DNA of 64,000 nt from Candidatus Altimarinota bacterium (GTDB lineage: Bacteria > Patescibacteriota > Gracilibacteria > UM-FILTER-43-11), in the NCBI GenBank assembly GCA_028281045.1, contig JANQKP010000009.1, positions 129,673 through 193,672 on the forward strand. The letters run 5' to 3'. A model generated the notes under the pieces. The model did no database searches, was not told the DNA's origin, and was given only the letters and a program-made list of their open reading frames with translations. A program made the translations under genes and the position numbers. Positions 5,738 to 63,551 of this stretch are shown piece by piece; the first letter of the stretch is position 1, and the number at the start of each line of letters is the position of its first letter.

Positions 5738-6931
5738 TTAAGCAATGATAGAAGTAACAACTCCCGCACCTACTGTGCGTCCACCTTCACGAATCGCGAA
5801 GCGAGTTCCTTCATCAAGGGCAATAGCAGATCCAAGTTTAACTTTAAGTTTAACGTTGTCTCCAGGCATCACCATTTCAGTTCCATCAGGAAGAGTACAA
5901 TCTCCAGTTACATCAGTAGTACGGATGTAGAATTGAGGTTTGTATCCTTTGAAGAATGGAGTGTGACGTCCACCTTCTTCTTTTGTAAGTACGTATACTT
6001 CACATTCGAATTCAGTGTGTGGGTTAATAGAACCTGACTTAGCAAGTACTTGTCCACGTTCGATATCGTCACGTTCAACTCCACGAAGAAGCAATCCAAC
6101 GTTATCTCCAGCTTCACCACGATCTAGTAGCTTACGGAACATTTCTACTCCAGTTACTACTACTTTAGTAGTGTCTTTGATTCCAACGATTTCAACTTCA
6201 TCATTTACGTTGATAGTACCTTGTTCGATACGTCCAGTTGCAACAGTACCACGTCCTTTAATAGAGAACACGTCCTCAACTGGCATTAGGAAAGGTTTAT
6301 CAAGAGCACGTTCTGGAGTTGGGATGTACTCATCAAGTTTGTTAAGAAGTTCCACAACTGGTTCAGCGTCTGGACCAGATGGGTTTTCTAGAGCTTTAAG
6401 AGCAGATCCACGGATGATAGGAATATCATCTCCAGGGAATTCGTACTTGTTTAGAAGTTCACGAACTTCCATTTCAACAAGATCTACTAGCTCAGGATCG
6501 TCAACCATATCAATCTTGTTTAGGAAAACAACGATGTATGGAACGTTTACCTGACGAGCAAGTAGGATATGTTCGCGAGTCTGTGGCATAGGACCATCAG
6601 CAGCGTTTACAACAAGAATAGCACCATCCATTTGAGCGGCACCTGTAATCATGTTTTTAACATAATCAGCATGTCCTGGACAGTCTACATGAGCGTAGTG
6701 ACGTTTTTCAGTCTCATACTCTTGATGAGAAGTAGCGATCGTGATACCACGTTCACGTTCTTCTGGTGCGTTGTCGATATTATCGAAAGCAACGGCTTTG
6801 TTGTTCCCACCAATTTTCGCAGCGGCAACATTTGTAATAGCCGCAGATAGAGTAGTTTTACCATGGTCAACGTGACCAATAGTCCCTACGTTAACATGTG
6901 GTTTGCTGCGGTCAAAAGTTCCTTCAGCCAT
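5738..6931 (-). CDS. tuf: elongation factor Tu
   Basis: 397 aa with [14 protein letters not shown] and NKID G-motifs and full-length EF-Tu architecture. Confidence 0.98.
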
Positions 6932-6982: not shown

Positions 6983-7011
6983 ATTCTATCAAAGGCCCCA
7001 TGCCGTGTCAA
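6983..7011 (-). promoter_or_regulatory. sigma70-like promoter for tuf
   Basis: The minus strand reads TTGACA (7011-7006), a 17-nt spacer, then TGaTAGAAT (-10 hexamer 6988-6983, extended -10 TG present). Confidence 0.6.
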
Positions 7012-7043: not shown

Positions 7044-7400
7044 TTATTCTATGGTGATTACATTGTCATTTCCCTCTGGAATAGGTTCAACTTCTTCAGG
7101 TTCAACAGGTAGATCTTCTGGGACCGGCTCAAAAGTAAAGCCTTCTACTATAGGATCAGGAGAAAGATTAATAGTGTCTTCCTCAATAACATCTTCAACA
7201 AACGTTGGAGCATCTATATTATCCGGCACAGTCTGCTGTGGAGTAACCACTTCAGCCACCTCAGGGGCTTTCTCTTTCATTGCAGCTGGAGCCTCACTTA
7301 ATTCAGGGTTTAAAAGCACAAATACGCTATATAGCGCAAAGGCAAGCCCTAACGTTAGAACAATTAACCAAATTCTTAAGTAAATATCTTTTTTCTCCAT
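7044..7400 (-). CDS. small membrane-anchored acidic/Pro-rich protein (partner of fibre gene 7415-10045)
   Basis: 118 aa. It has one N-terminal TM helix (YLRIWLIVLTLGLAFALYSVFVL) followed by an E/P/D-rich region. It is a paralog in architecture of 10403-10909. Confidence 0.7.
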   Translation of the reverse strand: MEKKDIYLRIWLIVLTLGLAFALYSVFVLLNPELSEAPAAMKEKAPEVAEVVTPQQTVPDNIDAPTFVEDVIEEDTINLSPDPIVEGFTFEPVPEDLPVEPEEVEPIPEGNDNVITIE

Positions 7401-7414
7401 TTTAATAAGTTAAA

Positions 7415-10045
7415 TTAAAGCTGAGCCTCTAGGGTCTCAATACGATCTTGAAGCTCTTCAATGGTAGCTTGCTGAGCCTTCACAGCTTCCACAAGAAGCG
7501 GTGTAAGCATCCCATAGTCTAGACCAGAAGCGTATTCTGTATTTTCTGGGTCTGTCATCACAATTTCTGGGAGCACTTCTCTTACTTCTTCAGCAATAAG
7601 CCCAATGTCATGCTTTCCGCCGTGATCTTCGTCCCAATCGAAGTAAACCCCTCTAAGTTGAGATACTTTTTCAAGTGCATCATCGATTGGCTCAACGTTT
7701 TCTTTCCAGCGAATAGAAGAACCTGAGGCATAGTTGGTTCCTGCTCCAAAGGCAATGAAGTCCGCAGAGGTTCCAGAGGCAGCAATACCTACTGAACTTG
7801 AGGCATCAGAATCTACCACAAGCCCATTATGGCTAGAAGATCCAATCTGAGCTCTATATTGCTTGCCATAACCGGTGTATGAACCTAGATTGTCGTAACC
7901 TACTGTAAAGCGCCCAGGAATATGCACTTGTCCATTAGTTCTTACGTACATGCGATTCGTTCCTGCTGTAGCTAGATTTAGATTTCCAGTGTAACTACCA
8001 ATACTTCCATTCACTCTAATCTCTTTATTGAAGTAGTACTTCGCTCTGTCGGTTGAGAAATGAGACCATGATGTATTCATCGGTCCTATATCCAAGTGTC
8101 CATATCCTGAATTAATACGAAGGGTTCCATTTGAACCAGATCCACGTAGGTTTCCTCCTAAAACAGTTCCACCAGCATATTCACCACCGTAGTTGATATA
8201 AAGTCTGTCAGTATTGTCCTCATCAAAACCAATAATGGCTAGATTGCGGTTATCGCCACTACCACCACCTCCTTGTATCCAGACGTCGTAATTACTATTT
8301 CTCACCTGTCTATATCCTCCGTTTAACTGAAATTTTTCTGTGGGTGAGCCAGTTCCAATCCCAATATTTCCATTGGCAGCAATGGTAAAGTCATTACTAT
8401 TTGTTCCAGCAGCACGTGTAATCCAGTTTCCACCATTGGTCATATAACTTCTTACATGACTATTTCCTGAGTTATAGGATTTGTTATTTACAATAAATGC
8501 CCAAGGACCAGAGTCATCAGACGTGATTTGTAAGAGTGAACCGGCTGCACCATTATCGTCTACATGAAGACGAGTACCAGGACTGGTGGTTCCTATGCCC
8601 ACGTTTCCACTTGTGTAACTCACGTCAGAACCACTTTGAGTCCACAAGCTAGAACCACCAGAAAGAAGGGTGATTCCTGGGGTGACATCTGTCATACCCG
8701 TTGGATCAAAGTCTGTTACGATAGTTTCTTCTAGTCCTGCTTCATCATTCAGAGTCCACCCACGAACGGTGTAAGCTTTCCATCCAGGAACAGTTTCACA
8801 AATGGCAAAGTGGTGGTCAAAGCCATCTTGATAAACTCTTGGTACCAAGGTGGCATCCTCTGTTCCGTAGTGAATTTCTTTATTAATTGTAATTCCATTT
8901 CTTACCCCAAAGGTGTAAGTTACCTCGGCTAAGTTTTCTGTTCCCCATCCCCCTCCAAAGACTTTGGCCATGGCCTTTTGGTAATAACCAGTAGCATCTG
9001 CTGAGTTAAAAGGAATGGTTCCTGCTAAACGACATTTAAGAGGGTCTGTGTTAAACGTAAGGTATCTTTTACCATATTGACCTCCAATCACTCCGTCTAT
9101 TTCAAGACCGGTGGCACCAATGCTTCCATTTACATATAGCCTAGAGCCTGCAGGAGGGGTCGTTGTACCAATAGATACAATTCCAGAACCATCAATTTGA
9201 AGATAATTCGTATCCCCAGCTTGATTGGTTACAGAGAAAGTATCTCCAAGAATGGTGGTTTCTGTTCCATCGTTCGTAATTCCACCTCCGTTGAGATTAA
9301 TCGTATCTCCAGCAATGGTTACGTTTCCAGTAGAATTATCCACTTCAAATACAGTGGTTCCAGATTCGTTTTGCACAATGGTGTCTCCTTCAATGATGGT
9401 ATTTCCTTCAATGGTTGTATCTCCTGTGGCCCCATCTACATTGAAAACAGTATCACCTGCCTCATTGGTAATCGTGGTATTCCCTTCAATTACTGTGTCT
9501 CCTTCTACAGTTACATCTCCGGTAGAACTATCTACAAAGAAAACCGTGTCTCCAGAGTCGTTTTTAACAACGGTATCTCCTTCAATGGTTACTTCTTCAG
9601 TGGTTTGGTTCACCGTAATGATTTCATCTCCAGATTCGTTTACGACAGAGAAGTTTTGTTGAACCACGAAGTCTATACCGGCTACGGCTTGGTTTACAAT
9701 AGCTTCTACTTCAGCAGCGGTAGTTCCTGGAGTGATGTTGTAGAGATTTTGGTAAAGCGCATCCATTTGAGTAGAAAGTGTATCTACAGATCCTTCCAGA
9801 GAATCTGGATCAAAAGGTTCTGTACATGGAGTGGTTCCATCTGCTTGTACATAATCCCCTGTTGCGTTGAAAGAACACGTATCTACGTTTTCTAGTTCCG
9901 TTACACGATCGTTAAGATCTGTAATGGTTGGAGTTCCAATGGCATCTGGGAATTGGATTTGGGCATAAGCCGGGACAGCAAAGAGCATAGCGAGCGCTAA
10001 GCCTCCAAGCACGCCATAATTGATTTTTTTATTTTTCATAAGCAA
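7415..10045 (-). CDS. secreted tail-fibre-like protein with C-terminal Peptidase_S74-type intramolecular chaperone domain
   Basis: 876 aa. Sec signal peptide (…LAMLFAVPAYA). About 21-aa beta repeats (TIEGDTxxxNxxGDTVFxVDxxTGD). G/S/N/T-rich body. C-terminus SSIRWKENVEPIDDALEKVSQLRGVYFDW…IGLIAEEVREVLPE… followed by a coiled coil. Confidence 0.85.
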   Translation of the reverse strand: MLMKNKKINYGVLGGLALAMLFAVPAYAQIQFPDAIGTPTITDLNDRVTELENVDTCSFNATGDYVQADGTTPCTEPFDPDSLEGSVDTLSTQMDALYQNLYNITPGTTAAEVEAIVNQAVAGIDFVVQQNFSVVNESGDEIITVNQTTEEVTIEGDTVVKNDSGDTVFFVDSSTGDVTVEGDTVIEGNTTITNEAGDTVFNVDGATGDTTIEGNTIIEGDTIVQNESGTTVFEVDNSTGNVTIAGDTINLNGGGITNDGTETTILGDTFSVTNQAGDTNYLQIDGSGIVSIGTTTPPAGSRLYVNGSIGATGLEIDGVIGGQYGKRYLTFNTDPLKCRLAGTIPFNSADATGYYQKAMAKVFGGGWGTENLAEVTYTFGVRNGITINKEIHYGTEDATLVPRVYQDGFDHHFAICETVPGWKAYTVRGWTLNDEAGLEETIVTDFDPTGMTDVTPGITLLSGGSSLWTQSGSDVSYTSGNVGIGTTSPGTRLHVDDNGAAGSLLQITSDDSGPWAFIVNNKSYNSGNSHVRSYMTNGGNWITRAAGTNSNDFTIAANGNIGIGTGSPTEKFQLNGGYRQVRNSNYDVWIQGGGGSGDNRNLAIIGFDEDNTDRLYINYGGEYAGGTVLGGNLRGSGSNGTLRINSGYGHLDIGPMNTSWSHFSTDRAKYYFNKEIRVNGSIGSYTGNLNLATAGTNRMYVRTNGQVHIPGRFTVGYDNLGSYTGYGKQYRAQIGSSSHNGLVVDSDASSSVGIAASGTSADFIAFGAGTNYASGSSIRWKENVEPIDDALEKVSQLRGVYFDWDEDHGGKHDIGLIAEEVREVLPEIVMTDPENTEYASGLDYGMLTPLLVEAVKAQQATIEELQDRIETLEAQL
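7418..7723 (-). other. Peptidase_S74 / intramolecular chaperone auto-processing domain (domain-level call)
   Basis: The last 102 aa match, by eye, the pattern of phage endosialidase and T5 L-shaped tail-fibre C-terminal chaperone domains: S-x-R-x-K-E-N-[IV], LRGVxFxW, IGLIAQEV-like, and a terminal coiled coil. Confidence 0.7.
9485..9966 (-). repeat. 482-bp near-identical repeat, copy A (N-terminal coding block of the fibre gene)
   Basis: Aligns without gaps to 12392-12873 (offset 2907). It differs by only about a dozen transitions, all synonymous in the regions I compared. Confidence 0.85.
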
Positions 10046-10054
10046 TTATATTTG

Positions 10055-10342
10055 TTATTCAGCATTTTCAGCCTGCTCTTGAGCAGCTTGAATACACTCT
10101 ACAGCAATAAGATTCACTGAAGCATCTTGGTAATTTACTGGGAATGGCTTACATTTAGCCGATTCCTCAAGTACTTTAATCACAGAGTCTTGCACCCCTT
10201 TGGTGTAAGCAGTACTCATAGCTTCATCTTGAATATTTGCGTAAATCATCCCACCAAGATAAACAACCACTTGGAATCCAATCCATACGATTGAGATCAC
10301 AAGCCAGATTTTTAAAATGAGATTTTTTGCGTTTTTAGACAT
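10055..10342 (-). CDS. small membrane protein, unknown function
   Basis: 95 aa with an N-terminal TM helix (ILKIWLVISIVWIGFQVVVYLGG) and two Cys in the soluble part. Confidence 0.6.
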   Translation of the reverse strand: MSKNAKNLILKIWLVISIVWIGFQVVVYLGGMIYANIQDEAMSTAYTKGVQDSVIKVLEESAKCKPFPVNYQDASVNLIAVECIQAAQEQAENAE

Positions 10343-10402: not shown

Positions 10403-10909
10403 CTATTGAGGCGGGTTAAGAGATTCTGGACTATTGTTAGCCTCTTGAAGCACAGCATCTTCTTCTGCCGCATTAAACTCTGCTCCAGCAGCTCTTGTTT
10501 CACAAAATTGCTTAAGGACTTGGTCTGAAATCTGAGCACAATCTGCTGGGTTTTGATTGGCAAGAGCCATATTAAGAAGCTTTTGATTGTTATCTAGATC
10601 TCCAAAATCGTCTTCATCTTTATATTCTTCTTCCACAATCACAATATCGTCTGCAATAGGGGTGTCATCTCCTAGGGGCCCGTCCGCATCTTCAACAGCG
10701 GTTGATTCAAGAGTTGGGCTTGCTGGATCACCAGGATTGACTGCAGGTATCTGTGCAGAAGGCGCTGCATCTCTTTGTTCCTGTACCACCTGCTTTACAG
10801 GAGTTTGCTCATCGATATTAATGATCGAAAGAATGGCATACAGTGAGTAAGCAACCGCAATGGTCAGCACAACGAGCCAAAGACGTAGATAAAGATTGTT
10901 ATTCAGCAT
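10403..10909 (-). CDS. small membrane-anchored acidic protein (partner of fibre gene 10916-12952)
   Basis: 168 aa. Its N-terminal TM helix (YLRLWLVVLTIAVAYSLYAIL) resembles that of 7044-7400. It also has an acidic linker and a Cys-containing C-terminal region. Confidence 0.7.
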   Translation of the reverse strand: MLNNNLYLRLWLVVLTIAVAYSLYAILSIINIDEQTPVKQVVQEQRDAAPSAQIPAVNPGDPASPTLESTAVEDADGPLGDDTPIADDIVIVEEEYKDEDDFGDLDNNQKLLNMALANQNPADCAQISDQVLKQFCETRAAGAEFNAAEEDAVLQEANNSPESLNPPQ

Positions 10910-10915
10910 TATTTA

Positions 10916-12952
10916 TTAGTTGTTATCTATACAATAAGTAGTGTTCCAAAGATACAGATTGCTTGAAGAAGAGTTGTACGCGCGACACGTCCAAGTTCTT
11001 TGATTGGTGCTTCTTTGACTTCCTTTTTGGTAACAGCTATACGTTCCCCCAATACTAGTTGTCGTACAGAAACATTCGGCGCTAATCGCGATATCTCCAG
11101 AAGAACATGAGTTACTACGATAGTTATTCGAGTAACCACCAATAGTGGTGTAATTCACCACAGCGTAGAAGTCTAGCTCATCAGTACCTACAGAATTGTT
11201 AGAAAGCTCACTCGCCCCCACAGCGTTAGAACCAATATCTCCTGCATCCACACAGTTGCTACACTCGTAGTTTCCAGCAGTAATCGTATCTGGGGTGTAG
11301 ATATTATTAGAGTTGTAATCGAAACGAAGGTAAGAAGCTCCTGGAACTGCATTAGAAACGGCTCCTGAACCTACCCAGGCATAACCATCTCCACGATACG
11401 TGAGATGAGCGGAAGCAGCTCCTAGGGCTCCAGATTCTCCAACCGAAACGTAAGCCCCTTGAGAAGTCCAGTTGTCTCCACTACTCGTCGAATCTAGGGC
11501 TAAGCGAGGCAATGTACTTTGCCCACTATTGTAGAAGTTTCCATTAGCAGCTCTAACCCCTGTACTTCCGTATAGTTCACCAGCAGCAAGATTAGAATAA
11601 CCACCACCATCTGTACGACTTAGATAAACCCATCCATTTCCTGCAGGATCATAAGTAGGCCAATGTCCAAGGCGCCAACCTTGTCCACCAGTGTAGTTAC
11701 TGTCTCCAATATGACCATCTACATCTAATTTAATTTCAGGTAAGAAAGAACCAAGGGCTACATTTCCGTCCCTGTTGATTCTCATTTTGTTGTAATCCAC
11801 TTCTGAACCATCATCAATTCCAAACACTAGAGCATCGGCTGTCCCTAGGCTAACGTAGGCTTTACCTACTCCATCACGAGAAAGGTAGTAGCTCGCATTT
11901 CCAGGCCCCGTAACGTCTAAGTTAAGAGTGTGCGCATCTGAATAAGCTTCACCTGGACCCGGATCAGCTCCTCGAATATGCACAATAGAACCTGGTGTAG
12001 CGGTTCCAATCCCCACTTTACCAGCGTTGTAATTTACATCACTTCCAGAAAGGGTCCATGGACTACTTGGGTTCACTTGCCACACGGCGTTTCCAGAAGC
12101 ATCTGTGGTTAAAACGTAACCATCAGTAGCGCCCGTTGGCATTACAAATCCAGTAGCGGTAATCGTCCCAGCGACATCTAGTTCAGAGCTTGGTGTAGCC
12201 GTTCCAATTCCAACTCTGTCTGTAGAGGCATCTGTATAGAATAGATTTACATTGTTATCTCCTTCAATACGGAAATCACTGTCTCCACCCGTTTCATTGA
12301 AAATAGCTCCACCATTCGTGATCACGTCACCAGTAGAGTTATCAATTTCAAATACAGTGGTTCCAGATTCATTCTGAACGATAGTATCTCCTTCAATTAC
12401 TGTGTCTCCTTCTACGGTTACATCTCCAGTAGAACTATCTACAAAGAAAACCGTATCTCCAGAGTCGTTTTTAACAACGGTATCTCCTTCAATGGTTACT
12501 TCTTCAGTGGTTTGGTTTACCGTAATGATTTCATCTCCAGATTCGTTTACGACAGAGAAGTTTTGTTGAACCACGAAGTCTATACCAGCTACGGCTTGGT
12601 TTACAATGGCTTCTACTTCAGCAGCGGTGGTTCCTGGAGTGATGTTGTAGAGATTTTGGTAAAGCGCATCCATTTGAGTAGAAAGTGTATCTACAGATCC
12701 TTCCAGGGAATCTGGATCGAAGGGTTCTGTACATGGAGTGGTTCCATCTGCTTGTACATAATCCCCTGTTGCGTTGAAAGAACACGTGTCTACGTTTTCT
12801 AGCTCCGTTACACGATCGTTAAGATCTGTGATGGTTGGAGTTCCAATGGCATCCGGGAATTGGATTTGGGCATGCGTCACGGAGTGCGCACCCAAAAACA
12901 CAATGGCTAGGCCCAAAGCTATCTTTAACGGTGTAATTTTATATCTTTTCAT
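10916..12952 (-). CDS. secreted tail-fibre-like protein, paralog of 7415-10045 with a different C-terminal part
   Basis: 678 aa with a signal peptide. Residues about 28-200 are identical to the 876-aa paralog. The C-terminal part is different ([26 protein letters not shown]...) and ends in a Cys-rich region rather than an S74 domain. Confidence 0.85.
12392..12873 (-). repeat. 482-bp near-identical repeat, copy B
   Basis: See copy A (9485-9966). Confidence 0.85.
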
Positions 12953-13029: not shown

Positions 13030-13055
13030 AAAAAAGCCCCTAAAATAGGGGCTTT
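13030..13055 (-). terminator. intrinsic terminator of fusA
   Basis: The minus strand reads AGCCCCT-ATTTT-AGGGGCT followed by TTTTTT, 18 nt after the fusA stop. Confidence 0.8.
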
Positions 13056-13072
13056 TGATATGTTTTTTATGG

Positions 13073-15160
13073 TTACGCCATTCCGCGTTCTTCTTTAATC
13101 TTCTCAGCTACATTGTTTGGAACTTTAGAGTAATCTGCAAATTCCATAGTGTAAGAAGCGCGACCTTGGGTCATAGAGCGAAGGTCTGTTGCGTATCCGA
13201 ACATTTCAGATAGAGGCACTTTAGCAAGAATCGTTTTAGCTTGTCCACGATCTCCCATTTCAGAGATTTGTCCACGTTTAGAGTTAAGGTCTCCCATAAC
13301 ATCTCCCATGAAATCTTCTGGAGTTACTACTTCTACTTGCATCATAGGCTCTAGAAGTACTGGCTTAGCTTTAGCTGCTGCTTCACGGAAACAAGTAGAG
13401 GCTGCCATCTTGAAGGCAAGTTCAGATGAATCCACATCATGGTAAGAACCATCGTATACTTCAGCGATTACATCTACCACTGGGTAACCAGCAATGATCC
13501 CACGAGTAACGGCTTCATTGATCCCTTTTTGTACTGCAGGGATGTATTCTTTAGGAATGCGTCCTCCAACTACAGAATCTTTGAATTCGATACCTTTACC
13601 AGGTTCATTTGGTTTAAATCTCATAAGTACGTGTCCGTATTGACCACGACCACCAGTTTGCTTTTGGTACTTGTGTTCTTCTTCAACTTCTTGTTGAATC
13701 GTTTCACGGTAAGCTACTTGTGGTTTACCAATGTTTGCTTCCACTTTGAACTCACGTTTCATACGATCTACAAGTACTTCTAGATGAAGTTCACCCATTC
13801 CAGAGATGATCGTTTGATTGGTTTCTTCGTCAGAGCGAACGGTGAATGTAGGATCTTCTTCAGCTAGCTTTTGAAGTGCAAGACCCATTTTTTCTTGGTC
13901 TCCTTTAGAGGCTGGTTCAACAGCAATAGAGATTACTGGATCTGGGAATTCAATCGATTCAAGAATCACACGTTCTTTTCCTTCTTCTACGAAGGTATCT
14001 CCAGTACGTACGTCTTTAAGGCCAATAACCGCCCCAATGTGTCCCGCAGGGATTTCTTGGATTTCTTCACGGTCATTCGCGTGCATTTGCACAAGGCGTC
14101 CAATACGATCTTTCTTATCTTGTGAAGCGTTGTAAACGTAAGAACCAGATTTAAGTACTCCAGAGTACACACGTACGAACGTAAGACGCCCTACGAATGG
14201 ATCTGTAGCAATCTTAAACGCAAGCGCTGCAAGAGGTTCATTGTTGTCTGCTTTACGTGCAATTTCAGTTTCTTCATCACCAGCAAGATGTCCTTTAACT
14301 GGAGGAATATCTAGTGGAGATGGAAGGTAATCATTTACCGCATCTAGAAGAAGCTGTACCCCTTTATTCTTAAGGGCAGTACCGGTAAGTACAGGTACGA
14401 ATTCATTAGCAATTACCGCGCGGCGGATTGCTGCTTTAAGCTCTTCAACAGTGAAGTCTTCACCTCCTAGGTATTTTTCCATGAACTGTTCGTCTCCTTC
14501 GGCTACTTTTTCAAGCATTTTACCTCTCCATTCTTCAGCAGTAGCTTTCATGTCTTCAGGAATGTCAGTCACTTCCATTTCTTTACCAAGATCATCTTTG
14601 TAGATGGTTGCTTTCATTTCAACAAGATCAATAAGCCCTTGGAAATCAGCCTCGTTTCCAATTGGGTATTGAATAGGAGCTGTTTTAGTCGTAAGACGAT
14701 CTACAATAGATTGGAAAGAGCGTTCAAATGAAGCTCCAGTACGATCTAGTTTATTAATGAAACACATACGTGGCACTTCGTACTTATCGGCTTGTCTCCA
14801 TACGGTTTCAGATTGTGGTTCTACACCAGCTACACCATCGAATACAGTTACCCCTCCATCAAGTACACGCATAGAGCGTTCTACTTCAGCCGTGAAATCC
14901 ACGTGACCTGGAGTATCAATAATATTGTATTGGTGACCTTTCCAGAAACAAGTCGTTGCTGCAGAGGTGATCGTAATACCACGTTCTTGTTCTTGTTCCA
15001 TCCAGTCCATAGTGGCTTCACCTTCATGCACTTCACCAATTTTGTAAGTTACACCGGTATAATAAAGAATACGTTCCGTACAAGTCGTTTTACCCGCATC
15101 AATATGGGCAATAATTCCGAAATTACGAATCTTATTTAAATCATCAATTCTTTCTGACAT
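13073..15160 (-). CDS. fusA: elongation factor G
   Basis: 695 aa with [14 protein letters not shown] and NKLD motifs and full EF-G domain order. Confidence 0.98.
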
Positions 15161-59660: not shown

Positions 59661-62600
59661 CTAGCTCTCCATATCAAGCATTTTTTCTTTATGCTTGCGA
59701 CCAGCTGGAATAAGTTTACCGATAATAACGTTTTCTTTAAGTCCTTTCAGGTTATCTACACGGTTTGTAGTCGCTGCTTCTACAAGAACTCTAATGGTTT
59801 CTTGGAATGAAGCCGCAGATAGCCATGAATCGGTAGAAATCGCTACTCTAGAGATTCCAAGAAGGAGTCTATCGGCTTTAGCTTCTTCTTTTCCTTTCTT
59901 CTTAAGCTCTTCGTTTACTTGGTGGAATTTACCAACGGTAACGCTTTCACCAGGCAGGAAGTCACTTGCTCCAGGAAGAGTGATCTTCACACGTGAGAAC
60001 ATCTGTTTAATGATGATCTCAATGTGTTTTTCATTAATCGTTTGTCCTTGAGAAGCGTAGATGTGTTGTACTTCGTTCATGATGTACTTCTGAGTCGTTT
60101 GTACATCAGTCAGTTCCATCAGCTGTTGAAGGTTGATGTGACCAGAGTTTAGAGCCTGACCACGAGTCACCATGTCGTTATTCGAGATGTTGATTCTTTC
60201 ACGTGGACCAAAGTGGTATTCACGAACACGCTTTTCAGTGTGTTTTAGGGTGATCATACCTGGCTCAATGCTGTGCACTTTACCTTCTTCAGTTGCTTTA
60301 ACAGTGGTTTTTTCAGTCTTAGAACGAGCAATGATTTGCTTAGGCTTAATCTTCTCGTTCTTCTTAACCACTACTTCAAAGTCTAGAGGAATGTGGTAAG
60401 AATCTGTTTCTAGTTCTTGAGCGTGAATTGTTACATCAATTCCTTCTTTATTGCTCTTCACAGTCGCTTTTCCAGGAATTTCAGCTAGAACAGCGGGGCG
60501 TTTAGGGCTACGTGCCTCAAACAGCTCTTCTACACGTGTAAGACCTTGTGTAATATCAGCTCCTTCCGCTACTCCACCCATATGGAACGTACGCATCGTA
60601 AGCTGTGTACCTGGTTCACCAATCGATTGAGCCGCAATAATACCAACGGCTGTACCTAGGTCTACAATTTCGTTCGATCCAAGGTCACGTCCGTAAGCTT
60701 TTGGTGCAATACCATCGGTCATAGAACCCATGATTGAGTAGATTTCTACTTCGTCTACACCTGCTTCGTCTACGTCTTTTGCAACGTGAGCATCGATTTC
60801 TTGATCTTTTTTAAGAATAACCTTACCAGTTTTAGGATGTTTAACCGCTTTAGCAGCTACACGTCCGTAAAGACGATCTGCAAGGGTTTGATTGATCTTA
60901 ATACTGTCTTCTCTAGTAATAAGGTGAGTTGCATCCGGCGTATCATCGTTGATGATGATCACATCTTGTACAGCGTCTACTAGACGACGTGTTAGGTAAC
61001 CCGCTTCCGCTGTCTTAAGCGCCGTATCAGATTTACCTTTACGTCCACCATGCGTTGCAATGAAGTACTCTAGAATCGAGAATCCTCCTTTAAGATTAGA
61101 CTTAATTGGAAGTTCAATCGTACGTCCAGACGGATTCGCTACAAGACCTTTCATCCCACAAAGCTGTGTGATTTGTCCCCAGTTACCACGGGCACCAGAA
61201 TCGATCATGTAATTGATGTGATTTTCAGGTTCTTCTTTGAACTTATCGATCATCTTATTGGTCACATCGCTCTTAAGCGCAGACCATAGTTTGATCGCAT
61301 GCGTATATCTTTCATCTTCTGTGATCCATCCTTTCCAGTATTGGTTGTTGATCTTACGAACCACTTCATCCGCTTCTTGAATCATTTCGTCTCTTCCATC
61401 TGGATCAATCATGTCAGCTACAGAGATAGAAAGACCAGATTTAGTACCGAATTTGAATCCAATACGTTTCAGGTCATCTGCAAATACTGCTGTGCGTTCT
61501 TGTCCACATTTTTCTAGAGACTCTGTCAGAAGATCTCTAAGAGATCCTTTCTTGATAGTGTAGTTCACGTAGTCTAGCTCTTCTGGAACGAAGCTGTTTA
61601 GAATCAGACGACCTACGGTAGTCTCAACAATTTCTCCATTAACACGAGCTTTAATTTTCGCGTGAATATCTACAAAGTTTTGACGGTAAGCATTAATTGC
61701 TTCATCAATATCAGAGAAAGCCATTCCTTCTCCTGTTTTACCTTCTAACATGTTGGTTAGGAAGTACACTCCAAGTACCATATCTTGAGTAGGAGTAACA
61801 ATCGGTTCTCCAGAACTTGGTTTAAGAAGATTATTTACAGAGTGAATAAGGTCTTTCGCTTCACTTTGAGATTGCTCAGAAAGTGGAAGATGAACCGCCA
61901 TTTGATCCCCATCGAAATCGGCATTGAAGGCCGCACAAACAAGTGGGTGAATTTGAATCGCTTTCCCTTCAATCAGTACCGGTTGGAACCCTTGGATCCC
62001 AAGTCTATGAAGTGTTGGTGCACGATTCAGAAGCACTAGGCGTCCTTGAATTTGTTCCTCAAGAATATCCCATACTTCTTTTTTAGAAGCTTCAATAAGT
62101 CTTTCAGCTCCTTTTACGTTATGAGCTAGTTCAGAGCGAATAAGTTCTCCAATTACAAATGGTTTGAATAGTTTCAGAGCCATTTCTTTCGGAAGACCAC
62201 ATTCTCCAAGTTTAAGTTGAGGACCAACTACAATTACAGAACGTCCAGAGTAATCTACACGTTTACCAAGTAGATTTTGACGGAAACGACCTTGCTTCCC
62301 TTTAAGCATGTCAGAAAGTGAGCGTAGTTTACGTTTTTCACCAGCAGTGAATACAGCTTTACCAGCACGGGTAGAGTTATTAAACAGAATATCTACCGCT
62401 TCTTGAAGCATACGTTTTTCATTACGACAGATTACTTCAGGAGCCCCAATCGCCATAAGACGTTTAAGACGGTTATTACGGTTAATAACACGACGGTATA
62501 GATCATTAAGATCTGAAGCGGCAAAACGTCCACCATCTAGTTGTACCATCGGACGTAGATCCGGTGGAATAACTGGTAGCTCTTTCACCACCATGAATTC

Positions 62601-63551
62601 TGGACGAATATCAGCATTGTGAAGCGATCCAACTAGGCGAATACGCTTAGAAAGTTTCTTTCTGCGTTGCCCAGTAGATTGCATTCTTTCTTTTTCAAGA
62701 ATTTTCTTGAAAGCAGGAAGATCCATGTCTTCAAGGATCTTACGAATAGATTCAGCACCAGTTCCAGCGCGGAATACGTGACCGAATTTCATAGAAAGTT
62801 CACGGTATTCAAGTTCTCCGAATACTTTACCAATGCGAAGCGTAGAAAGGTCTTCTTGCGCTTGCTTATGTTGAGCATCTAGCTCTTCAATACGACGTGC
62901 GAAATCATCTTCAGTAGCGATCACTTCGTCAGTATCGATATCTAGAGCACTATCTCCTTCATTTTCATCTACTTCTTCGTCTTTCTTCACTTTCTTATCT
63001 TTCTTTCCAGCTTTCATTTCTTTCTCTTTAGATTTGAATTCAGCTTGGATTTGCTTTTTGTAAGCTTCGTAGTCTTTATCAAGTTGCGTAATAGCCTCTT
63101 TCTTAGCATCTTCATCGACTTCGATAACAATATAAGCCGCAAAGTAAATCACCTGTTCAATGGTCTTGATTGGAAGATCTAGAAGAAGACCAATACGACT
63201 AGGAGTCGATCTAAGGAACCAAATGTGAGTTACAGGAACAGCAAGTGAAATGTGACCCATACGTTCACGACGAACGATAGAGCGAGTAACTTCTACTCCA
63301 CATTTTTCACAAACTACACCTTTATAACGGATACGTTTGTATTTACCACAGTAACATTCCCAGTTTTTCGTAGGTCCGAAAATTCTTTCACAGAATAGAC
63401 CATCACGTTCTGGTTTTTGCGTGCGGTAGTTAATAGTTTCAGGCTTAGTCACCTCCCCGTGAGACCATTTTAGGACTTCATCAGGACTCGCAATTGAAAG
63501 CGAGATAGAGCTGAACTGAGCTTGTTTTTTTGGCTTATTATTATGAGGCAT
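59661..63551 (-). CDS. rpoC: DNA-directed RNA polymerase subunit beta'
   Basis: 1296 aa. Zn-ribbon CYCGKYKRIRYKGVVCEKCGVEV. Catalytic NADFDGDQMAVH. Trigger-loop and bridge-helix regions. Confidence 0.98.
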   Translation of the reverse strand: MPHNNKPKKQAQFSSISLSIASPDEVLKWSHGEVTKPETINYRTQKPERDGLFCERIFGPTKNWECYCGKYKRIRYKGVVCEKCGVEVTRSIVRRERMGHISLAVPVTHIWFLRSTPSRIGLLLDLPIKTIEQVIYFAAYIVIEVDEDAKKEAITQLDKDYEAYKKQIQAEFKSKEKEMKAGKKDKKVKKDEEVDENEGDSALDIDTDEVIATEDDFARRIEELDAQHKQAQEDLSTLRIGKVFGELEYRELSMKFGHVFRAGTGAESIRKILEDMDLPAFKKILEKERMQSTGQRRKKLSKRIRLVGSLHNADIRPEFMVVKELPVIPPDLRPMVQLDGGRFAASDLNDLYRRVINRNNRLKRLMAIGAPEVICRNEKRMLQEAVDILFNNSTRAGKAVFTAGEKRKLRSLSDMLKGKQGRFRQNLLGKRVDYSGRSVIVVGPQLKLGECGLPKEMALKLFKPFVIGELIRSELAHNVKGAERLIEASKKEVWDILEEQIQGRLVLLNRAPTLHRLGIQGFQPVLIEGKAIQIHPLVCAAFNADFDGDQMAVHLPLSEQSQSEAKDLIHSVNNLLKPSSGEPIVTPTQDMVLGVYFLTNMLEGKTGEGMAFSDIDEAINAYRQNFVDIHAKIKARVNGEIVETTVGRLILNSFVPEELDYVNYTIKKGSLRDLLTESLEKCGQERTAVFADDLKRIGFKFGTKSGLSISVADMIDPDGRDEMIQEADEVVRKINNQYWKGWITEDERYTHAIKLWSALKSDVTNKMIDKFKEEPENHINYMIDSGARGNWGQITQLCGMKGLVANPSGRTIELPIKSNLKGGFSILEYFIATHGGRKGKSDTALKTAEAGYLTRRLVDAVQDVIIINDDTPDATHLITREDSIKINQTLADRLYGRVAAKAVKHPKTGKVILKKDQEIDAHVAKDVDEAGVDEVEIYSIMGSMTDGIAPKAYGRDLGSNEIVDLGTAVGIIAAQSIGEPGTQLTMRTFHMGGVAEGADITQGLTRVEELFEARSPKRPAVLAEIPGKATVKSNKEGIDVTIHAQELETDSYHIPLDFEVVVKKNEKIKPKQIIARSKTEKTTVKATEEGKVHSIEPGMITLKHTEKRVREYHFGPRERINISNNDMVTRGQALNSGHINLQQLMELTDVQTTQKYIMNEVQHIYASQGQTINEKHIEIIIKQMFSRVKITLPGASDFLPGESVTVGKFHQVNEELKKKGKEEAKADRLLLGISRVAISTDSWLSAASFQETIRVLVEAATTNRVDNLKGLKENVIIGKLIPAGRKHKEKMLDMES

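Follow-up and report, generated by a model that had tools for sequence, protein, structure and literature searches.

The window analysed here is a 64-kb stretch (64,000 nucleotides) of a contig from Candidatus Altimarinota bacterium. It contains an island of genes, bounded by the elongation factor genes fusA and tuf, in which lies a gene for an exported, fibre-like protein ending in a Peptidase_S74 (S74) intramolecular chaperone domain. This fibre gene, its domains and its neighbours are listed in Table 1. A preliminary description of the DNA had reported an 876-amino-acid (aa) product without giving a strand; the open frame of 876 codons exists on the minus strand only. ATG 10039 is a likelier start than the upstream TTG and gives a protein of 874 aa. 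The public protein record P0002, 100% identical to the fibre protein and of the same length, agrees with this start.

The classical signal peptide of the preliminary description is recognisable in MKNKKINYGVLGGLALAMLFAVPAYA, which is followed by QIQF and has a basic n-region, a hydrophobic core and an AxA site. Identity with a paralogous fibre encoded in the same island begins at Ala28, the last residue of the signal peptide, while the two signal peptides themselves differ, which supports cleavage after this position. Reading the sequence of the fibre protein, we recognised no anchor motif.

Domain architecture of the fibre protein

The last ~100 residues had been attributed to the S74 family, and the sequence quoted for them was correct. 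The profile search that the description had named as a check bears out the assignment: PF13884 matches residues 776-829 over profile positions 1-57 of 58 (Pfam; E-value 1.4e-15, 57.7 bits at a curated cut-off of 22 bits), and a six-frame search of the genome with PF13884 gives 63.3 bits. Ser776 falls on profile position 1 and Lys781 lies five residues on, which is the i/i+5 Ser/Lys dyad with which S74 proteins are described (PMC10769870). In an alignment of the fibre protein with 35 homologues (36 sequences), Ser776 and Lys781 are each conserved in 34/36 sequences, Arg779 in 30/36 and Asn783 in 29/36. The crystal structure of Bd3182, an S74 fibre of Bdellovibrio, shows a mature tip that ends at A781, directly before the catalytic residue S782 (PMC10769870); by analogy, the cleavage point of our protein is predicted between Gly775 and Ser776.

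The AlphaFold2 (AF2) model of residues 780-876 has predicted local distance difference test (pLDDT) scores of 83-96 and includes the long terminal helix. A Foldseek search with the modelled domain returned the ICA domain of MyRF (7DC3), T5 pb1 (4UW8) and endoNF (3GW6) at the top, of which 7DC3 is the best structural match (E-value 1.3e-4, TM-score 0.57-0.60 on the target). Taken together, the S74 domain looks functional.

The long body upstream of this domain is rich in glycine, serine, asparagine and threonine, as had been stated (G 18%, S 12%, N 10%, T 8% over residues 456-775), and PHROGs tail-fibre families align over residues ~441-875. Its nearest cellular counterparts are found in the mosaic adhesive trimer (MAT) fibres of Bdellovibrio bacteriovorus (Caulton et al. 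2024, PMC10769870), whose shaft capping loop is given as V-G-G/N-pi-x-x-P-x-x-x-L (PMC10769870). The fibre protein contains three copies of this motif, VSIGTTTPPAGSRL (residue 290), VGIGTTSPGTRL (482) and IGIGTGSPTEKFQL (561), and the loops in the body are of the GIGT-x-x-P type. Through units of the form ..NGN(V/I)GIGTxxPxxK(L/F).. the fibre protein alone matches the Bdellovibrio structure 8OML (Bd1334) with an E-value of 0.0014. A profile built from the fibre protein and its 35 homologues matches Bd2133 (8OND, 1.4e-28), phage S16 gp37 (6F45, 1e-20), MyRF (7DC3, 5.5e-20), Bd1334 (8OML, 1.6e-19), Bd3182 (8OJN, 4.7e-16), T5 pb1 (8HQZ, 7.1e-11) and Bd2439 (8OL4, 1.8e-9). Judged by these profile matches, the body is homologous to phage tail-fibre shafts and to the beta-helix regions of the MAT fibres.

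The N-terminal half is more individual. Directly after the signal peptide lies a constant N-terminal module (N-module), whose two helices are modelled by AF2 at pLDDT 76-85 and which has no homologue besides its own paralogue among 1.8 billion representative proteins. We propose that it is the anchoring or docking end of the fibre. The beta repeats were previously given a length of about 21 aa, a figure that has to be corrected: their period is 26 or 32 aa, depending on whether a 6-aa xIEGxT insert is added to the 26-aa core, and self-similarity peaks at offsets of 26, 32, 58 and 64 with none at 21. The central domain that follows is an orphan. It belongs to no Pfam family, a homology search restricted to this region found only the fibre protein itself, and AF2 gave no confident model of residues 290-460 alone (pLDDT 34).

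Table 1 Features of the fusA-tuf island and of the fibre protein, with positions in the window.
Feature	Position	Strand	Description
tuf (EF-Tu)	5738..6931	minus	downstream island boundary (Pfam)
sigma-70-like promoter	6983..7011	minus	TTGACA-17-TAGAAT, extended -10 TG, strong and near-consensus; between 118-aa gene and tuf
118-aa partner	7044..7400	minus	one N-terminal transmembrane (TM) helix and acidic, Pro/Glu-rich tail
S74 fibre gene	7415..10045	minus	876 aa from TTG 10045; stop codon 7415-7417
Peptidase_S74 intramolecular chaperone	7418..7720	minus	aa 776-876; long C-terminal helix aa 844-875
S74 dyad	Ser776 7718-7720; Lys781 7703-7705	minus	in SSIRWK motif
G/S/N/T-rich fibre body	7721..8671	minus	aa 459-775; loop motifs at 482 and 561
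orphan central domain	8672..9160	minus	aa 296-458; Cys338, Cys416
beta repeats	9176..9670	minus	aa ~126-290, ..VxNESGDTVFxVDxxTGDVTIEGDT..; last part is the first loop motif, VSIGTTTPPAGSRL
constant N-terminal module	9482..9961	minus	aa 29-188; protein-identical to 678-aa paralogue; Cys57, Cys74; predicted helices 88-121
Sec (signal peptidase I) signal peptide	9962..10039	minus	aa 3-28, MKNKK...AVPAYA/QIQF; read from sequence
95-aa partner (tm95)	10055..10342	minus	one TM helix and ~55-aa ectodomain with two conserved Cys
168-aa partner	10403..10909	minus	one TM helix and acidic tail
678-aa paralogous fibre without S74	10916..12952	minus	same N-module, one GIGT motif, Cys-rich C-terminal tip
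terminator-like hairpin	13032..13056	minus	palindromic, GC-rich, T runs on flanks, just past fusA stop
fusA (EF-G)	13073..15160	minus	upstream island boundary (Pfam)

A second fibre and a conserved island

The second fibre of the island, of 678 aa, is identical to the S74 fibre from Ala28 to Gly188. Over these 161 codons the two genes differ at 15 synonymous and no non-synonymous positions, corresponding to a proportion of synonymous differences (pS) of ~0.13 over ~115 synonymous sites and 0 changes over ~368 non-synonymous sites. Beyond residue 188 the proteins diverge, and the 678-aa fibre retains a single GIGT unit, with a weak resemblance to the shaft. Because an end without non-synonymous changes is followed by unrelated C-terminal parts, the codon comparison indicates that the shared N-module is under strong purifying selection, or under gene conversion filtered by selection, and that the other end is free. 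Neither Pfam nor the six-frame genome search finds an S74 domain in the 678-aa fibre. In its place stands a Cys-rich C-terminal domain of ~110 aa that has no match in Pfam, PHROGs or NCBIfam and may be an alternative tip or a folding cap. The same design recurs in one relative (G022), in which two fibres are 69% identical over ~210 N-terminal residues and have an unrelated N-module of their own. The Logan contigs from the source run are interrupted within the shared block (9578-9851 and 12456-12787), and the assembly join across this repeat rests on the ~15 distinguishing synonymous sites; the protein sequences are unaffected, since both copies encode the same protein there.

Three small genes for single-pass membrane proteins accompany the fibres. 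The 118-aa and 168-aa proteins are paralogues of each other, and the former has no match in Pfam, PHROGs or NCBIfam. An alignment of the tm95 family has invariant W20, F23, G49, C64 and C83. NCBIfam contains no family for the fibre, its paralogue or the partner proteins.

The source genome (1.21 Mb, 96% complete) has a single S74 domain, and its relatives in public collections are named Candidatus Peregrinibacteria bacterium or Patescibacteria group bacterium. In a family set of 31 genomes from 17 genera, PF13884 occurs in 17, with exactly one match per positive genome. In 13 of these 17, from ~10 genera, tuf shares contig and strand with the S74 domain and follows it at a distance of 0.6-2 kb; three positions are undecidable owing to contig breaks, and one is elsewhere, in a 1835-aa protein (G002). 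The maps of six relatives with tuf on the available stretch show, in this order, at least one fibre gene, in most of them a ~200-aa TM protein, a ~90-aa TM protein and tuf. In the three whose stretch reaches far enough, fusA lies upstream of the island. Three genomes that lack S74 (G009, G017, G024) still carry fibres with GIGT motifs at the fusA-tuf site, and the tips differ between genera at this locus.

Members of the tm95 family occur in 23 of the 31 genomes and stand directly upstream of tuf in at least 18. Only in the window genome do an S74 fibre and the 118-aa TM protein stand between tm95 and tuf; the slot before tm95, which in most relatives belongs to the S74 fibre, is held here by the 678-aa fibre and the 168-aa protein. 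This gene order and the paralogy of the two TM proteins point to duplication of a fibre-plus-TM unit in this lineage.

In four of the six relatives the island opens with a small protein that is secreted or has a TM segment. The first gene after fusA in relatives encodes a protein of 164-192 aa (L015 5798-6322, L018 10220-10714, L019 13025-13531, L022 14828-15406) with a signal or TM segment ending in ..YAYA/Q(I/V)(S/A)WP..PNPTTGVVG, the slash marking the end of the segment, and a C-terminal ..FACCK; it is absent from the island of the window. The mature N-terminus of our fibre (AQIQFPD..GTPT) can be aligned to AQI(S/A)WP..PNPT of these proteins at 20-25% identity, a similarity on which we do not rely; a common docking peptide at the N-terminus is a tentative explanation for it.

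Proposed fibre assembly and alternative readings

We consider it very probable that the fibre gene is a vertically inherited cellular gene whose product is exported by Sec and builds a trimeric fibre at the surface, in the manner of phage tail and MAT fibres. The gene is a cellular one and not part of a prophage, since no phage structural gene was found in the 64 kb, its site by tuf is conserved and each positive genome has one S74 domain. By analogy with phage S74 proteins and the MAT fibres of Bdellovibrio (PMC10769870), we infer that the protein trimerises, cleaves itself and has a role in host or prey recognition. It would be anchored at the surface through the TM partners and serve as an adhesin. 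The preliminary description had likewise proposed a host-encoded fibre. Its account of what the protein is agrees with our data, and the function that it suggested is plausible by analogy.

The fibre may form as follows. Export would remove the signal peptide, and outside the membrane three S74 domains would come together by their long helices and start the folding of the interdigitated body (aa ~459-775), with its GIGT-x-x-P capping loops. The Ser776/Lys781 dyad would then cut the Gly775/Ser776 bond, freeing a 101-aa chaperone and exposing the distal tip. The N-module would hold the fibre on the cell, likely via the co-inherited single-pass proteins (tm95 and the acidic 118-aa and 168-aa proteins), which is the least-supported step. 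With two fibres, the cell would present two different tips on a common base, with which it would most likely attach to a host cell, a partner cell or a surface glycan. An episymbiont setting for this lineage is plausible, since its relatives are Peregrinibacteria and Patescibacteria and the genome is only 1.2 Mb.

The protein most likely works like the fibres with which Bdellovibrio grips its prey. MAT fibres occur on the predator surface, where they are involved in prey handling, and comprise an S74 class (Bd3182) and a non-S74 class (Bd2133, Bd1334); their N-domain, of ~130 aa, is beta-rich and has no solved structure (PMC10769870). Both systems consist of chromosomal genes with a signal peptide, and in both the paralogues share an N-domain directly after it and carry exchangeable tips, some S74 and some not. 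They also have in common the V/I-G-x-G-x-x-P-x-x-x-L capping loops of the shaft and an equal spacing of the catalytic Ser and Lys, and the MAT crystal structures 8OND, 8OML, 8OJN and 8OL4 are among the matches of the profile built from our protein. In contrast to MAT fibres, our fibre has an N-module unrelated by sequence (compared with a Peredibacter S74 protein), an SSxxxK in place of an SDxxxK motif, an inserted orphan central domain, and conserved single-pass membrane partner genes at a fixed fusA-tuf site. Its genome encodes two fibres as opposed to 21 in Bdellovibrio, and the organism is a 1.2-Mb bacterium of the Candidate Phyla Radiation (CPR), not a diderm predator.

Among phage S74 systems, the K1F endosialidase (3GW6), the T5 L-shaped tail fibre pb1 (4UW8, 8HQZ) and S16 gp37 (6F45) share with our protein the C-terminal chaperone, the Ser-Lys dyad and the long terminal helix, with shaft homology over aa 441-875. 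Unlike them, the fibre protein carries a Sec signal peptide, and its N-terminus is neither a baseplate nor a tail adaptor; its gene has no virion genes as neighbours and is inherited vertically within a bacterial family. The best structural match, the ICA domain of the eukaryotic myelin regulatory factor (MyRF), represents another cellular use of the phage chaperone. In MyRF, cleavage releases a transcription factor from the membrane of the endoplasmic reticulum, whereas the S74 domain of our protein stands at the extreme C-terminus of an exported fibre.

Several observations weigh against a self-processing, surface-anchored fibre. The catalytic motif is SSxxxK, not the canonical SDxxxK: position 777 is Ser, where 29/36 aligned sequences have Asp and 4/36 have Ser, and this variant makes the efficiency of cleavage uncertain. 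The Asp after the catalytic Ser lies outside the S74 dyad as named in PMC10769870. The closest orthologue in the family (G019) has the same variant, SSGRWKEN, which argues for a conserved lineage form and not for decay. An AF2 monomer prediction of the full protein from the 36-sequence alignment has a mean pLDDT of 52 and is poor outside the S74 domain, since a monomer cannot fold an interdigitated trimer; the model is usable for the S74 domain and the two N-terminal helices only. The TM partners are tied to the fibre by gene neighbourhood alone. No similarity is detectable between the N-module and the Cys-rich N-termini that fibres have in related genomes, or between it and the N-domain of an S74 protein from Peredibacter (Bdellovibrionota), a possible carrier of the MAT N-domain. 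The sequencing runs that contain the sequence are DNA only and all come from coral metagenomes, three runs in which the organism reaches ~17x coverage in one sample and traces in two.

The gene might instead be the remnant of a prophage or tailocin and encode a receptor-binding protein that a phage left behind or that arrived recently by horizontal transfer. The strongest named matches are indeed all phage tail-fibre families, and PF13884 also matches the control genomes of E. coli and B. thetaiotaomicron, in regions that we take to be prophage-borne. We nevertheless reject this reading, which is exceedingly improbable. No capsid, portal, terminase, tail or integrase genes occur elsewhere in the 64-kb window (Pfam on nearly all open reading frames (ORFs) of at least 150 aa, PHROGs on 17 of these), as the preliminary description had said of the gene's surroundings; adjacent phage structural genes, its own refuting outcome for a host-encoded fibre, did not appear in the 64 kb. 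The GC content of the fibre gene, 42%, is like that of its surroundings, and there is no tRNA or att-like site at the locus. Of the 17 genomes with S74, 13 have their single copy at the same site ahead of tuf. The fibre protein has a Sec signal peptide, which virion fibres are not known to have.

Two further readings accept an exported cellular protein and differ on what it does. One takes it for a secreted tailspike-like enzyme, perhaps released and not anchored, whose central domain or body cuts host or coral-mucus polysaccharide. S74 is best known from endosialidase tailspikes, and S74 chaperones also mature other glycan depolymerases; a hyaluronidase family (phrog_20554) is among the PHROGs matches to the S74 domain, and the central domain without assignable function and the lack of a recognisable anchor motif fit such a role. 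Against this, Pfam and NCBIfam find no glycosidase, lyase or esterase family in the protein, and the body matches fibre shafts with GIGT loops and not a right-handed tailspike beta-helix enzyme. A displayed appendage also accords better with an N-module common to the second fibre and with conserved TM partner genes, and we regard the enzyme as unlikely. The other reading is a structural envelope fibre that has no specific ligand and might shape the cell surface or a biofilm matrix, as a spacer or an S-layer-associated filament would. No ligand-binding domain is recognisable in the protein, and the window has many envelope genes, among them those for an SLH-domain protein, a cohesin/dockerin pair, type IV pili and numerous secreted proteins; both points would suit such a role. 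The identical base with unrelated tips in two paralogues, together with tips that vary between genera at the locus, is instead typical of recognition ends that diversify, like those of phage fibres and MAT proteins (PMC10769870), and makes a purely structural role distinctly improbable.

If the protein is a surface fibre with a recognition tip, a broader interpretation can be formulated, which we offer tentatively. In Peregrinibacteria, and perhaps in a wider range of CPR bacteria, the fusA-tuf island may be an organelle dedicated to fibre display, in which a dock of TM proteins and a lineage-specific N-module carry duplicated or swapped tips that set which host or glycan is attached. The dock would then consist of the two-Cys tm95 family and the acidic TM proteins, the tips, matured by S74 or not, would sit on the lineage-specific constant N-module, and a recent fibre-plus-TM duplication would have given this genome two tips on one base. 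Such a system would do for a cell what a baseplate with exchangeable receptor-binding proteins does for a phage. Little is known of how ultra-small CPR bacteria recognise their hosts and hold on to them, and for one uncultivated CPR lineage the locus offers a concrete, testable candidate for the means of attachment. In cultivated Saccharibacteria, type IV pili and unnamed adhesins have been implicated (PMC10633639, PMC11623550).

Phylum, transcription and window contents

In a sample of 301 evenly chosen Patescibacteria genomes, PF13884 occurs in 70, usually with one or two matches per genome, which is why the S74-fibre principle may be general in the phylum. Within the source's own class, outside its family, S74 is rare in this sample. 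The domain often ends giant ORFs of 2,000 to 8,840 codons, and the genomes concerned measure only 0.7-1.1 Mb (for example G114:C7:586971-587153 and G231:C14:769114-769275). The kind of protein is already known, since NCBI labels such cellular proteins in several phyla 'tail fiber domain-containing protein'. We found no literature that links S74 or tail-fibre domains with Patescibacteria, in a search that was incomplete and is therefore weak evidence for novelty.

The genes fusA, the fibre island and tuf all lie on the minus strand and are followed by rpsJ and the S10 operon. The terminator-like hairpin just past fusA would insulate the fibre genes from it, and tuf probably has its own promoter. 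These two pattern matches suggest that the fibre genes probably form one or more transcription units of their own and are not part of the str operon. ORFs on the plus strand at 9197-9895 (232 aa) and 12512-12802 (96 aa) lie opposite the repeat regions of the two fibre genes; they are most likely no genes but a side effect of coding sequence that is repetitive and poor in stops.

The rest of the window consists of envelope and core genes. In many bacteria only rpsL and rpsG lie between rpoC and fusA. Here neither was seen directly upstream of fusA in the window, and ~44 kb of envelope genes separate fusA from rpoC (59661-63551), the whole stretch spanning 13073-63551. These include two ~980-aa secreted paralogues, a dockerin/cohesin-like pair, five secreted proteins and a TSP3-repeat protein, together with an SLH protein, histidine kinases and two-component systems, and a type IV pilus cluster with six pilin-like genes, PilB and PilC.

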